Of a stretch of 64,000 nucleotides of DNA, positions 39,215 through 43,763 are shown piece after piece. Under the pieces are notes generated by a model. That model was not told where the DNA came from. It saw only the letters and a program-made list of their open reading frames with translations, and did no database searches. Source of the stretch: a virus (lineage: Duplodnaviria; Caudoviricetes); the IMG/VR virus record IMGVR_UViG_3300037466_003648, positions 32,001-96,000 of that record, one strand, 5' to 3'. Numbering within the stretch: the first letter of the stretch is position 1; each line of letters begins with the position of its first letter. Both the position numbers and the translations under genes were made by a program.

Positions 39215-40000
39215 GTGAACTGGGATCACCCTGACCACGAAGTATTCAAAGAGCGGCGGGACGAGAGCCAGATTCTCACGAGCTGGTACGTCGCCCGCCC
39301 TCTTGTTCAGAAGCAGCTCGACGGTCATCCACTAACCGAAGCCGAGCGGATGTACGTTCGACGCTTCTACGGCTCGAACGTCAACCAGGAGTTCTTCTGC
39401 CGCCTGGGGCTGACCTTCGCCAACAACAGCGAGTGTTGGCTGCCGGGCATCCCCACAGAGGAGCAGTGCCAGCGCTGCTCGCTGCATTACGCCTCGACCC
39501 ACGTCGTGAACTTCGGTCGCGATGAAGTCCCGAACGCGCCACCCGATCGTACCAACGTGAGCATGGTGGCAACCAAGGACGAGCAGGGCATCACCCGCAT
39601 CACCTGGATTCCCGTGAAGGACGCGCCAGCTGGAATGAACGGCCAGTTCATCGCGGGGGTGCAGCACGCGTTCAGCTCGTCGCTGACCCGCATCTTTCCC
39701 GTTTGCCTGCCTGGCCTGAGCCCCAGCTTCGACAAGTCCTGTGACGGGAACTGTGCGAAGTGTCCTGGCTATGGGTATTATGATGCTACACAAGAAACAA
39801 CCACGACCAACCTTGGGAACGTGAAGCTGACCAATGCCACCCTGCACCCTCGCATCGCCGAGCGGTTGAAGGTGATAGGCACGCAGCATGAGGAGCCACC
39901 TCTTGACGAACGAATCGAAGTACGATCCAATGATACCGATGGACTTTCACCAAGCGGAGATCCGAGTCGTACCGAGCTACCGCCGCCGGAAGGGTCGTGA
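39215..40000 (+). CDS. Cys-rich hypothetical protein
   Basis: GGAGGAG RBS before GTG. Confidence 0.65.
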   Translation: MNWDHPDHEVFKERRDESQILTSWYVARPLVQKQLDGHPLTEAERMYVRRFYGSNVNQEFFCRLGLTFANNSECWLPGIPTEEQCQRCSLHYASTHVVNFGRDEVPNAPPDRTNVSMVATKDEQGITRITWIPVKDAPAGMNGQFIAGVQHAFSSSLTRIFPVCLPGLSPSFDKSCDGNCAKCPGYGYYDATQETTTTNLGNVKLTNATLHPRIAERLKVIGTQHEEPPLDERIEVRSNDTDGLSPSGDPSRTELPPPEGS

Positions 40001-40166
40001 GCTGATCGGCTCTCGGTACGCTGGTCGCAAGGGGACCATCGAGGTCCGTCCCGCCATCCACGGCGCCTACGCCTCCGCCTTTGTGATGCCCAACGGCTAC
40101 CGTGCTGGCAAAACCGACGAGGTCGTCACCATCCCCGTGGACATCTCGTCCGCCACCCTAATCTAG
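39930..40166 (+). CDS. hypothetical protein
   Basis: GC3 bias; overlaps upstream gene end; start uncertain. Confidence 0.45.
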   Translation: MIPMDFHQAEIRVVPSYRRRKGRELIGSRYAGRKGTIEVRPAIHGAYASAFVMPNGYRAGKTDEVVTIPVDISSATLI

Positions 40167-40175
40167 GAGATCCAG

Positions 40176-40496
40176 ATGCTCAAGAAGACCCTGCTCGCTG
40201 TCGTCGCTGCGCTGTTCATGACGGGCTGTGCCAACGCCTTCAACCGCGTTGACCGTACGTTCTTCCAGAACTCGGCGGGCGACTACCACCTCGTCCAGTA
40301 CACCCTGGCAGGAAATGTGGACTACTGGGTCCACAACATCAAGGTGACCCAGGAGCACGAGACCGATGGCGTGTTCTTCTTCCTCGCCGACGGTACGATG
40401 GTGGAGATCCAGGGTCCGGTGACCAGCGTCCGCCTCAAGCACGGCTTCGACGGCCCCGATCGGTTGCCCGCGAACCTGCTGGCTCCGGCCAAGTAG
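40176..40496 (+). CDS. putative lipoprotein
   Basis: MLKKTLLAVVAALFMTGC lipobox. Confidence 0.75.
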   Translation: MLKKTLLAVVAALFMTGCANAFNRVDRTFFQNSAGDYHLVQYTLAGNVDYWVHNIKVTQEHETDGVFFFLADGTMVEIQGPVTSVRLKHGFDGPDRLPANLLAPAK

Positions 40497-40504
40497 GCGC
40501 ACCC

Positions 40505-41611
40505 ATGAGCGCCAGCTACCCCGAGAACCTCGTCGAGCTTGAAGCCTGGTTGAAGGACCGGGACCGCGAGTACTACGAGAAGGATGCCCCTACTGTCAGC
40601 GACGCGGTCTACGACGCCGCCACCAGCTACTGGGAGCGCATGGCGGGCAAGACCTGGGAGGTGCTGGGCAAGCCCTCCGAGCAGTTGACCCGCATCCCGC
40701 ACGTCGTGCCGATGCTCTCGCTCTCGAAAGAGACGGAGATCGAAGGCGTCGTCGCTTGGATTCCCGACCCCGACGAAGTCTACGTGCTGCTGCCCAAGAT
40801 CGACGGCATGGCAGGTCGCCTCAAGTACGATGCGGGTCAGCTCGCCAACGCGGTGTCTCGTGGTGACGGGTCCGTGGGTGAGAGCATCCTGCACAGCCTC
40901 AAGCTGCCGCTTGCCTCGGGTCACATCCCCGACGTGCTGCCCGACCCGCCACCGGGCGATCTCTACCCCGGTGGTGAGGTCTACCTGCCCAAGGAGCTGT
41001 TCAAGCTCGTGGGTGGTGCCAACCCCCGCAACGTGGGCGCTGGTCTGGTCCGTCGTCAGACACCGCACCCGCACCAGGCGCATCTGCGCTTCGTCGCCTA
41101 CCACCTGGTGGACCCGACCGGTCATGCGGGCGAGACGTACCTGGAGCAGCTGGAGTGGCTGCGCTGCCAGGGCTTCGAGATTCCCCCGCACGCGACCATC
41201 CATGGGGCGGACTTCCAGCACCTGACGCTCGACGCGCTGCACCCCGACCAGTGGCTCAACCCCGGCGAAGTGCTGCCCTACGAGATCGACGGCGTCGTCA
41301 TCACCTTGAACAACCTCGCCAAGCGCGCGGCGTTGGGCGAGACGGGCCACCACCCGCGCTGGGCGTGTGCCGTCAAGTTCGCGACGGAGATCGCCGTGAC
41401 CAAGCTGATCACCGTAGAGTGGAGCGCCACCCGTACGGGTGTCGTGGTCCCCACCGCGGTGTTCGAGGCGGTCAACTTGTGCGGCACCATCGTGACCCGT
41501 GCCACATTGCACAACCTGGAGCACTACCAGAAGTTGGGTGTGCGTCCGGGGGATATGGTGAAGGTCAGGAAGGCGAACGACATCATACCCGAGCTGATTG
41601 GCAAGGCGTGA
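40505..41611 (+). CDS. ligA: NAD-dependent DNA ligase, N-terminal part (Ia, adenylation, OB domains)
   Basis: PMLSL, KIDG, SRGDG, IDGVV, PRWA-AVKF, RTG, TRATLHN, IIPE; stops after OB fold. Confidence 0.9.
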   Translation: MSASYPENLVELEAWLKDRDREYYEKDAPTVSDAVYDAATSYWERMAGKTWEVLGKPSEQLTRIPHVVPMLSLSKETEIEGVVAWIPDPDEVYVLLPKIDGMAGRLKYDAGQLANAVSRGDGSVGESILHSLKLPLASGHIPDVLPDPPPGDLYPGGEVYLPKELFKLVGGANPRNVGAGLVRRQTPHPHQAHLRFVAYHLVDPTGHAGETYLEQLEWLRCQGFEIPPHATIHGADFQHLTLDALHPDQWLNPGEVLPYEIDGVVITLNNLAKRAALGETGHHPRWACAVKFATEIAVTKLITVEWSATRTGVVVPTAVFEAVNLCGTIVTRATLHNLEHYQKLGVRPGDMVKVRKANDIIPELIGKA

Positions 41612-41766
41612 TGGGTGTGGTCCTTTGTTTCTTCGGGTTCGTCTTGCTGCTGGCCGACCTCGACAACATCCTACAGCATGACTACTTCTGGGGCTTGGTT
41701 GGCCTGGGTGTGATGATCGTGGGCTACGTCATCGACGCCTACGAAGATTGGAGTATGACCTCGTGA
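41611..41766 (+). CDS. small membrane protein (51 aa) between ligase halves
   Basis: TGATG and GTGA couplings; two hydrophobic segments. Confidence 0.65.
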   Translation: MGVVLCFFGFVLLLADLDNILQHDYFWGLVGLGVMIVGYVIDAYEDWSMTS

Positions 41767-42641
41767 CCGTTTCGTTGGATCTCCCCTATCCGCCGACCTG
41801 CCCCAGCTGCAAGCACCCGACCGTCGTGTCGCTGCCGCACCTGGTCTGCCCCAACCCCTCGTGCCGGGCCAAGCTCGTGTTCCTGTTGGCACACGTCGCC
41901 AAGCGCCCGAACTTCGACATCGGCACGCTGGGCGAAGAGGTGGCCGAAGCCCTTGTCGCGTCGGGCTTGGTCAAGAACCTGTACGATCTCTTCACCCTCG
42001 AAGAGGCCAAGGTTGCGTCGATCCCCTTCGGCAAGGGCACGTACGGCAGCGTGCGGGCCAAGAAGTTGGTCGACAACATCGACAAAGCACGCGAGAAGCC
42101 CTGGAACGTGGTGCTGCACTCGCTGGGCATCCCCGGTCTGGGCGAGCCCGAGTGCGACATCATCGCCGCCAAGTACTCGCTCTGGGATCTCGCAGTCGCG
42201 ATGAACCCCGCGCAGCTCAAGGTCGAGCTGATGACCCTCAAGGGCATGGGCGAGAAGACCGCGGTGGCACTGGCCGAGTGGTTGAAGATCAACCGGGACT
42301 GGCTCGTCCAGTACGAACTGACGGAGGCTGGTGGACGCGCAACGGGTGGTCTCATCACGCTGCTCAACACGCGTCCCGAGGTCATCGACAGTCGCACACA
42401 GCCCTTGCTGGGCTACAAGATCGTGCTGACCGGCAGTTTCAGCACCAAGAGCGCTCGCAGCGACTACGAGAAGCGCCTGAAGAAGCTGGGTGCCGAGGTG
42501 CCCGGCAGCGTCAGCGTCAACACCACCTACCTCGTGGCCGGTGCCAACGTCGGCGCCAACAAGACCGACGCGGCCAAGAAGCACGGCGTCAACATCATCG
42601 ACGAGGCGACGCTGGTCGCCCTGCTGAAGGAGCACGAGTAA
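41763..42641 (+). CDS. ligA: NAD-dependent DNA ligase, C-terminal part (Zn finger, HhH, BRCT)
   Basis: CPSC...CPNPSC; LGIPGLG; BRCT IVLTG...GSVS-NT-YLVAG; GGAG RBS before GTG41763. Confidence 0.88.
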   Translation: MTVSLDLPYPPTCPSCKHPTVVSLPHLVCPNPSCRAKLVFLLAHVAKRPNFDIGTLGEEVAEALVASGLVKNLYDLFTLEEAKVASIPFGKGTYGSVRAKKLVDNIDKAREKPWNVVLHSLGIPGLGEPECDIIAAKYSLWDLAVAMNPAQLKVELMTLKGMGEKTAVALAEWLKINRDWLVQYELTEAGGRATGGLITLLNTRPEVIDSRTQPLLGYKIVLTGSFSTKSARSDYEKRLKKLGAEVPGSVSVNTTYLVAGANVGANKTDAAKKHGVNIIDEATLVALLKEHE

Positions 42642-42850
42642 TGCCCACCAACAAAGCCGAGACGCCCGAACCGAAGCCGACTCACGGCACACCGGTTGTG
42701 CGGATCTTCCGCGAGAAGCAGACCCTGATCGTCGAGGCCAACGAGATGCTCGTCGACCGCGATGCCTTGGGCCAGCTCGCGGGCAAGATGCCCGACCTCT
42801 ACCGACACCTGTCGTCCTACGGGATCGACACCGTCGAGCTGCGGGTGTAA
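42641..42850 (+). CDS. hypothetical protein
   Basis: TAATG coupling. Confidence 0.65.
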   Translation: MPTNKAETPEPKPTHGTPVVRIFREKQTLIVEANEMLVDRDALGQLAGKMPDLYRHLSSYGIDTVELRV

Positions 42851-42852
42851 CC

Positions 42853-43425
42853 ATGGCCGAAGTCGAAGCCAAGTTCCATCTGACGGACATCCAGGTTGGC
42901 GAGATCACCCGCATCCTGGGCCGACCCAAGGCTCATCTTGTCCAGACGGACACCTACTTCGACACGCCGAAGGGCTTGAGCTTGCGCATCCGCGAGGAGC
43001 GTAACCTCGCGCTGGGCAGCCACACCGCCTACCTTACCGCCAAGAGCGTGAGCGACCACACCGGCGGCATCCGTGCCGTCGAGGAGATCGAACCCGTCAT
43101 CGACCCCGACGACATCGACGTGTGGACCCGCATGTTCACGAACCTGATGGGCTTTCCTAAGGACGTGACGGTGGAGAAGCAGCGTGCGGAGTACGAGATC
43201 GACCGCGAGAGCGGTGGCATTGCCAAGCTCGTGCTCGACTTCATCTCCCAGCTGGGCCACTTCTGCGAGATCGAGATCGTCACCGAGGCATCCGACACGT
43301 TGTCGTGCGAAGCAGCCACTACCGAGCTGCAGAAGCTCATCAAGGAGCTGGGGCTGAGTCACCTGACCCCTGCCACGGGCTCGTACCGCTACATGCTCAA
43401 GCAGAAGGTGAAGGAGGGTGCATGA
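42853..43425 (+). CDS. CYTH (triphosphate tunnel metalloenzyme) protein
   Basis: EVEAKF, QTDTYFD, LRIR, EEIE, EKQR, EIEI. Confidence 0.85.
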   Translation: MAEVEAKFHLTDIQVGEITRILGRPKAHLVQTDTYFDTPKGLSLRIREERNLALGSHTAYLTAKSVSDHTGGIRAVEEIEPVIDPDDIDVWTRMFTNLMGFPKDVTVEKQRAEYEIDRESGGIAKLVLDFISQLGHFCEIEIVTEASDTLSCEAATTELQKLIKELGLSHLTPATGSYRYMLKQKVKEGA

Positions 43426-43763
43426 CGTCTCTCCGCTTCGGTGTGGCGTTCGCCGTGACGTTGCTGGTCAGCCAGCTGCTCCTCTCGGCCTCGGTCGGCG
43501 CCCGTCAGCCGTACCATCCTGATGTTTCGATGCCGGGTTGGACACTCAACAACCACCCCGGCGGTGGTCCCTACGTCTCGATCTTCGAGCAGTGCCCGAA
43601 CTTCGACCTGTTGCTGGTACACGATCGCTTCGGCATCGTCGAGCCCCGACCGGGTTGGTGGTACGCGGGTCAGGACGAACACGTCCCTGGTTACTTGATC
43701 TACCGCCGACCGCAGAACAAGAGCTTCCAACAGATCTGGACGGTCGATCCGTCCCCGCACTAG
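43422..43763 (+). CDS. hypothetical secreted/membrane protein
   Basis: GGAGG RBS; N-terminal hydrophobic segment. Confidence 0.6.
   Translation: MTSLRFGVAFAVTLLVSQLLLSASVGARQPYHPDVSMPGWTLNNHPGGGPYVSIFEQCPNFDLLLVHDRFGIVEPRPGWWYAGQDEHVPGYLIYRRPQNKSFQQIWTVDPSPH

Follow-up and report, generated by a model that had tools for sequence, protein, structure and literature searches.

Two-piece phage versions of LigA, the DNA ligase that depends on nicotinamide adenine dinucleotide (NAD+), are already known. Phage T5 carries a two-gene ligase, ligA/ligB (AAU05253/AAU05254; PMC3632103), reports on T5-like genomes use the same ligA/ligB annotation (PMC4319617, PMC6813398), and subunit A and B annotations run to hundreds in the Demerecviridae. 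GenBank records of this family place the two subunit genes either next to each other, as in a Salmonella phage, or three open reading frames (ORFs) apart, as in Vibrio phage Chazly21. The T5-type two-chain form has been solved structurally, with PDB entries 9HU3 and 9I5I pairing a 339-aa T5-like chain, 'DNA ligase (NAD(+))', with a second chain of 248 aa, 'DNA ligase subunit B'. Here, we analyze a 64,000-nucleotide stretch of phage DNA (the window), which corresponds to bases 32001-96000 of a complete virus record of 205,180 bp with direct terminal repeats and a G+C content of ~62% (IMG/VR IMGVR_UViG_3300037466_003648, Caudoviricetes). Positions 40505-42641 of the window encode LigA in two separate genes, ligA-N and ligA-C, cut at the spot known from T5, with a 51-aa ORF between them. 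A natural two-polypeptide LigA is well supported by the sequence comparisons below; the phage very likely makes a single ligase as two coupled subunits that form a heterodimer, with the 51-aa ORF as a passenger.

The window ligase shares its general organization with the T5-like enzymes. In both, two separate genes stand in the same order, the first (A) comprising domain Ia, the nucleotidyltransferase and the OB domain and the second (B) the zinc finger, HhH and BRCT domains, and in both the gap between the genes may be empty or contain unrelated ORFs. The position of the cut is also the same: T5-like subunit A ends in ...GVIPCIVERVYD before its stop codon and subunit B starts with MKIEIPTQCPSCG, following the pattern ...(I/V)IPxIVxx-stop for the end of A and M..IPTxCPxCG, at the zinc finger, for the start of B. 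Sequence profiles of the window family cover the chains of 9HU3 nearly end to end (A 10-338/339, B 2-237/248). Since the T5-type heterodimer has already been solved structurally, the window opens no new mechanism. A preliminary description of this DNA had implied novelty by pointing out that LigA is normally one polypeptide; T5 ligA/ligB and the Demerecviridae annotations take that novelty away.

A second point of comparison is offered by the 'genes in pieces' of T4-like phages, for which Edgell et al. 2010 (PMC2988022; Friedrich et al. 2007 cited there) give Aeh1 nrdA-a/mobE/nrdA-b, T4 gene 39/mobA/60 and gene 43A/43B of phages 25 and 44RR. There, as in the window, an essential DNA-metabolism gene is distributed over two polypeptides that need reassembly. 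The likeness extends to relatives of the window, one pair of which (contigs L002/L003) has an HNH/endonuclease VII-like ORF directly after the N-half; as described for gene 43 (PMC2988022), one phage may carry an endonuclease gene at a cut where a related phage carries something different. The window differs in that its own gap holds no nuclease gene and its 51-aa ORF no nuclease motif. Compared with single-chain bacterial LigA (E. coli, PDB 2OWO; T. filiformis, PDB 1DGS), the two window halves together retain all six domains in the same order as well as the listed catalytic residues, the domain Ia pattern YxxxxD...YD and the zinc residues. They differ in that the chain is broken in the linker between the OB domain and the zinc finger (OB-Zn linker) and that the equivalent of K290 is a threonine.

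The interval 40505-42641 contains three ORFs arranged head to tail, each in a different frame, with the following features:

40505..41611, + strand: ligA-N, putative catalytic subunit of the ligase, 368 aa (assigned by Pfam, E. coli LigA alignment, synonymous strain changes and invariant catalytic residues)
41609..41613, + strand: TGATG stop/start overlap of ligA-N and the 51-aa ORF, suggestive of translational coupling (sequence reading)
41611..41766, + strand: 51-aa ORF without homologue (ORFan), with two short hydrophobic segments at residues ~1-15 and ~26-41 (codon statistics; no homologue)
41750..41753, + strand: GGAG, resembling a Shine-Dalgarno motif, 9 nt ahead of the ligA-C GTG (sequence reading)
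41763..42641, + strand: ligA-C, putative DNA-clamping subunit with a 4-Cys zinc finger, HhH region and BRCT domain, 292 aa from the GTG (Pfam, structure-based alignment, synonymous strain changes)

The ATG of the 51-aa ORF at 41611 overlaps the TGA of ligA-N, the GTG of ligA-C at 41763 overlaps the stop of the 51-aa ORF (GTGA), and the gap between the ligase halves measures 155 nt. ORF, sequence and Pfam analysis bore out this three-ORF layout with its TGATG, GTGA and GGAG elements, as given in the preliminary description. A scan of 39800-43600 found no promoter-like site, and terminator-like matches in it were at chance level.

LigA-N matches Pfam DNA_ligase_aden (PF01653) at 1.2e-33 and DNA_ligase_OB (PF03120) at 4.7e-22, and its precomputed match to Nlig-Ia is faint to weak. 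The domain Ia residues that bind nicotinamide mononucleotide, and so give NAD+ specificity, appear to be present, as judged from the pattern Y..D....SD..YD at residues 22-37, which is kept in the phage family and in bacterial LigAs. Alignment to E. coli LigA (2OWO) extends over E. coli residues 4-388 and pairs K98/D100/G101 (the KxDG motif), R119, E158, D262 and K291 of LigA-N with E. coli K115/D117/G118, R136, E173, D285 and K314. The listed catalytic residues, like the zinc residues of the C-half, are invariant in the family alignment. LigA-N terminates in GDMVKVRKANDIIPELIGKA, 3 residues beyond the last residue aligned to the E. coli enzyme.

LigA-C resumes where LigA-N leaves off. It starts ~8 residues ahead of a zinc finger of the form CPSC...CPNPSC (CxxC...CxxxxC), with cysteines C13/C16/C29/C34 invariant in the family alignment, followed by the HhH region and a BRCT domain that matches Pfam PF00533 at 1.4e-08. 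Across zinc finger, HhH and BRCT it aligns to T. filiformis LigA 400-660 (1DGS) and E. coli LigA 404-669 (2OWO). An alternative start codon is TTG 41748; we prefer GTG 41763 because the resulting N-terminus, (M)TVSLDLPYPPTCPSC, agrees with those of homologous stand-alone C-halves (MTVATLPFPATCPDC and MINTLPYPTACPTC). The break accordingly lies in the OB-Zn linker, at ~391-403 in E. coli LigA numbering, with nothing missing and nothing extra. The complete genome has one LigA locus, and neither an ATP-dependent ligase domain nor a second LigA is detectable in it, making the ligA-N/ligA-C pair the phage's only recognisable DNA ligase.

The residue inventory of the pair looks like that of a working LigA with one deviation. 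All catalytic motifs had been described as looking intact, which holds for K98, R119, E158, D262 and K291 and fails at the second lysine of motif IV (E. coli K290, DGVVxK), whose equivalent is T267 (codon 41303-41305). K290 contributes to LigA catalysis, as known from mutagenesis. The equivalent residue is T, S, A or V in all 12 members of the phage clade, Lys in the nine LigAs nearest to bacterial LigA in the alignment, Met in P0022 and P0026, two outgroup rows of ~640 aa, and Arg in subunit A of the T5-likes, another point at which window and T5-likes differ. Because fused members of the phage clade share the substitution with split ones, T267 is a clade trait independent of the split; it may be an active-site change that is compensated.

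Several lines of evidence establish that the split is real. The same layout of N-half, 51-aa ORF and C-half, with an identical 51-aa protein, occurs on at least ten contigs from independent soil and rhizosphere metagenome assemblies (several JGI and Logan samples). Logan contigs gave a further check: two of them, 43 kb and 14 kb long and each from another run, extend across the entire stretch with no indels, and X6 and X7 cover it in part only. Two strains differ at 23 of the 2137 positions, again with 0 indels, and these substitutions are synonymous in the respective frame in ten of ten cases in ligA-N and 11 of 13 in ligA-C. With 21 of 23 differences synonymous, both ORFs must be translated as read and be under purifying selection. 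In line with this, the ratio of nonsynonymous to synonymous substitution rates (dN/dS) is ~0.06 in both halves when the split relatives L004 and L008 are compared. Strong purifying selection acts on ligA-N and ligA-C alike, in the frame of each, and an assembly error or pseudogene is excluded for practical purposes.

We then asked how the cut is distributed among related phages. Near-identical DNA had no match in the 'phages' collection and a related-locus search of viral contigs with the N-half gave no relatives; the relatives considered here were taken from a protein search with the N-half. The ten nearest are 44-59% identical, and nine of them are 356-373 aa long, i.e., N-halves alone. N-half relatives whose sequence was read end within a few residues of ...IIPxV, and the relatives' C-halves start at the zinc finger. 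Wherever a relative's contig is long enough to show both halves, they keep their order and lie close together, within a kept synteny of HIRAN ... ligase ... DUF2201 or CYTH. An exhaustive search with the C-half added more than 12 other stand-alone proteins, 257-300 aa long and starting with the zinc finger, some of which may be contig-end fragments. The space after the N-half varies widely:

L004/L005 and L008: nothing between the halves; the ORFs overlap by ATGA
L007: a 182-aa ORF
P0003 contig: a 191-aa ORF
L009: a Cys-rich ORF of 196 aa followed by a hydrophobic mini-ORF of 33 aa; no C-half up to the end of the contig
L002/L003: four ORFs (144, 93, 63 and 92 aa)

The first, 144-aa ORF of L002/L003 matches endonuclease VII/HNH PHROGs at 3.4e-10 and contains an HNH-like motif (...SIDHIKGGG..H). 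The insert of L009 has a weak HNH PHROG match at 0.002, and a search of the ESM Atlas with this 196-aa protein returned only Cys-rich or zinc-ribbon look-alikes below 0.9. The relatives' inserts are mutually unrelated and also unrelated to the 51-aa ORF. The preliminary description had the ligase split by an inserted membrane-protein gene, an account not borne out by relatives that are cut at the same site with nothing there or with unrelated ORFs, including the HNH-like nuclease gene. Its suggestion to look for the same split in related phages was fruitful: the cut recurs at the same OB-Zn linker, though two close relatives are fused.

These fused relatives are P0008, of 634 aa (contig L006), and P0122, of 658 aa, which shares 56% (N) and 60% (C) identity with the window halves and has the same downstream CYTH gene. 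In a maximum-likelihood tree the 12 phage sequences form one well-supported clade in which fused proteins are nested among split ones, with the topology (window, (P0122 fused, (P0002, P0003))). The split or fused state changes at least three times on this tree, and the approximately unbiased (AU) test rejects a single all-split clade at p = 1e-4, with the caveat that the group was named after the tree was seen. P0002, the N-half on L009, is nearest to the window by identity. The 33-aa hydrophobic mini-ORF that follows the 196-aa insert on this contig (L009 2530-2742) reads MMKEVLLETFWTLSGIFTGLFIVFFAYTHYLK, and the N-terminus of the next ORF, as we take it, resembles ClpP and not LigA-C; the contig ends there, so that the C-half of L009 is either further away or missing.

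The 51-aa ORF is very probably a real, translated gene, as its codon usage indicates. Its in-frame G+C contents at the three codon positions (GC1/GC2/GC3) are 0.57/0.28/0.80, and its codon log-likelihood per codon, 0.80, compares with a mean of 0.79 for the phage's real genes and is reached by none of 3000 off-frame 51-codon chunks. It is unchanged between the two strains, for which ~1.7 changes would be expected. Its two hydrophobic stretches are each ~15 residues long. No homologue was found among 5.8 billion proteins, in its own genome, in Pfam or in PHROGs, the ESM Atlas gave sub-threshold look-alikes only (0.84), and the ORF is absent from every relative examined. Because the gap holds different contents from one family member to the next without loss of conservation in either ligase half, we infer that the 51-aa ORF is most likely a lineage-specific passenger in a tolerated gap and not a part of the ligase.

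How the ORF arrived there was also considered. A Pfam/PHROG family search found no nuclease match in it, and in tblastx and blastn comparisons, which could have marked it as the remnant of a decayed endonuclease gene, the insert showed no similarity to those of the relatives. Around the insert, a search for target-site duplications or terminal repeats returned only 8-16-nt repeats at chance level. As for a split caused by a homing endonuclease gene, the window gap contains no nuclease gene, L002/L003 does, and the match in L009 is weak.

Despite their common architecture, the window and T5-like ligases are most simply explained by independent splits at the same permissive linker. The T5-like subunits are only ~25% identical to the window halves, and fused bacterial LigAs as well as a fused ~640-aa clade fall between the two groups on the tree, a placement weakened by the long branch of the T5-like rows. 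It is this low identity, together with the fused LigAs between the groups, that suggests separate origins. The T5-likes lack the 51-aa hydrophobic ORF, and the arrangement of the genes differs too: subunit B of a T5-like record follows a non-coding gap with a promoter-like site, whereas the window ORFs overlap. In that record, from a Salmonella T5-like phage, the gap between A and B is 202 nt long and contains the promoter-like sequence TTGACA-N17-TATACT (L016 3337-3540); its subunit B, unlike that of the window, may be transcribed on its own. In Chazly21, one of the ORFs between subunits A and B encodes a DprA-like recombination mediator (L017 4127-4687; PHROG 768 at 8.7e-49), a further instance of unrelated cargo at this site.

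Together, these observations suggest the following model. The three ORFs would be co-transcribed and translationally coupled by the TGATG and GTGA overlaps, such that both subunits should be made together. LigA-N (Ia, nucleotidyltransferase and OB) would bind NAD+, self-adenylylate on Lys98 and carry the nick-sealing chemistry, including phosphodiester formation, and LigA-C (zinc finger, HhH and BRCT) would provide the DNA-binding clamp. By analogy with the T5-like two-chain ligases, the subunits are expected to form a heterodimer that encircles nicked DNA. The cut in the flexible OB-Zn linker seems to have repeatedly gained and lost foreign ORFs in this phage family, among them free-standing HNH-type endonuclease genes. 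The existence of two polypeptides, as the preliminary description proposed, is upheld by selection on both halves, by a cut kept across a diverged clade, by the lack of any other detectable ligase and by chain ends like those of T5. The solved T5-like entries make physical assembly of the two chains a plausible expectation, and ligase activity of the pair is likewise predicted from its residues. Three considerations weigh against this model as a whole. For this phage, the mutual binding and the activity of the halves are predictions from sequence and analogy; T267 at the K290 position means that activity could be reduced or compensated elsewhere; and the 51-aa ORF is tightly coupled on both sides and fully adapted in its codons, as one would also expect of a functional partner.

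The last of these points leads to an alternative in which the hydrophobic 51-aa protein has a function in the ligase as its third component, i.e., a membrane tether, regulator or bridge of the split ligase. It would profit from the location of the ORF exactly between the halves with start/stop overlaps on either side, from codon statistics that equal those of a real gene, from the ORF's constancy in two strains (though the ~1.7 expected changes are few) and from the 33-aa hydrophobic mini-ORF that likewise follows the insert in L009. If true, it would constitute a three-component LigA without known counterpart. We nevertheless regard such a role as improbable, since the protein is an ORFan absent from every relative, relatives have nothing or unrelated ORFs at the site with both halves still under selection, the corresponding T5-like gap is non-coding or holds unrelated genes, and the hydrophobic segments are just ~15 residues long. 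A complex prediction of LigA-N and LigA-C with the 51-aa partner (score 0.00, partner predicted local distance difference test (pLDDT) <50) weighs neither way. It is similarly doubtful that the protein is a dedicated third subunit anchoring or gating the assembly at the membrane or a replication compartment, and the earlier suggestion that the small protein tethers the ligase to the membrane or regulates it found no support in an ORF without homologue.

The enzyme would also not be truly heterodimeric if an intron, a split intein or ribosomal bypassing joined the halves once they had been transcribed or translated. In favour of this idea, group I introns and inteins with endonuclease ORFs are frequent interruptions of phage genes. 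There are also 'fractured genes' in which split inteins lie on either side of an endonuclease gene (PMC2677866). For the window the idea has little chance of being right, less than a third component. No Rfam family matches 41300-42100 at E <= 1, the gap spans 155 nt only and has the codon usage of a coding region, and in L004 and L008 the ORFs overlap by ATGA with no intervening sequence; on these grounds we rejected a group I or II intron. Each half has its own start and ligA-C its own ribosome-binding site. The alignment to E. coli LigA up to 388 and from 404 leaves no room for intein halves of ~100 and ~35 aa, and split inteins and ribosomal bypassing were rejected in view of the ATGA overlap and the absence of extra domains at the broken ends. 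The solved T5-like enzyme, moreover, consists of two chains. The least credible explanation, a chance so small as to be nearly negligible, is a broken ligA or an assembly or sequencing artefact in a phage that uses the host LigA. A mid-gene stop with a frame change is the usual signature of a pseudogene or indel error, and an assembly error had been raised for checking; that check gave agreement among the at least ten independently assembled contigs and the 43 kb and 14 kb contigs, with a second strain also free of indels. The synonymous strain differences, the low dN/dS in relatives, a break exactly at a domain linker with a proper start and ribosome-binding site on the downstream half, and the persistence of the cut across relatives 44-59% identical all contradict decay, and this explanation is effectively refuted. 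The preferred reading remains a two-subunit ligase with a passenger ORF.

The window thus adds an independent soil jumbo phage lineage to the two-subunit NAD+-dependent ligases. It further points to the OB-Zn-finger linker as a recurrent permissive break point, with one family containing fused ligases, split ligases with an empty gap and split ligases with unrelated cargo. This makes the family a useful case for studying how selfish endonuclease genes drive gene fission, and offers protein engineers a natural LigA split site. In annotation, half-size ligA ORFs should not be called pseudogenes.

The neighborhood of the locus contains further genes on the same strand. Directly upstream of ligA-N, a 106-aa ORF (40176-40496, +) without PHROG match starts with MLKKTLLAVVAALFMTGC, which in our reading resembles the signal peptide of a lipoprotein, lipobox cysteine included. 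Two genes downstream of ligA-C lies a gene for a CYTH-domain protein (PF01928, 190 aa; 42853-43425, +), the same position being kept in the fused-ligase relative L018 (4137-4706). In the window phage, the CYTH gene is followed by a DUF1653 gene.

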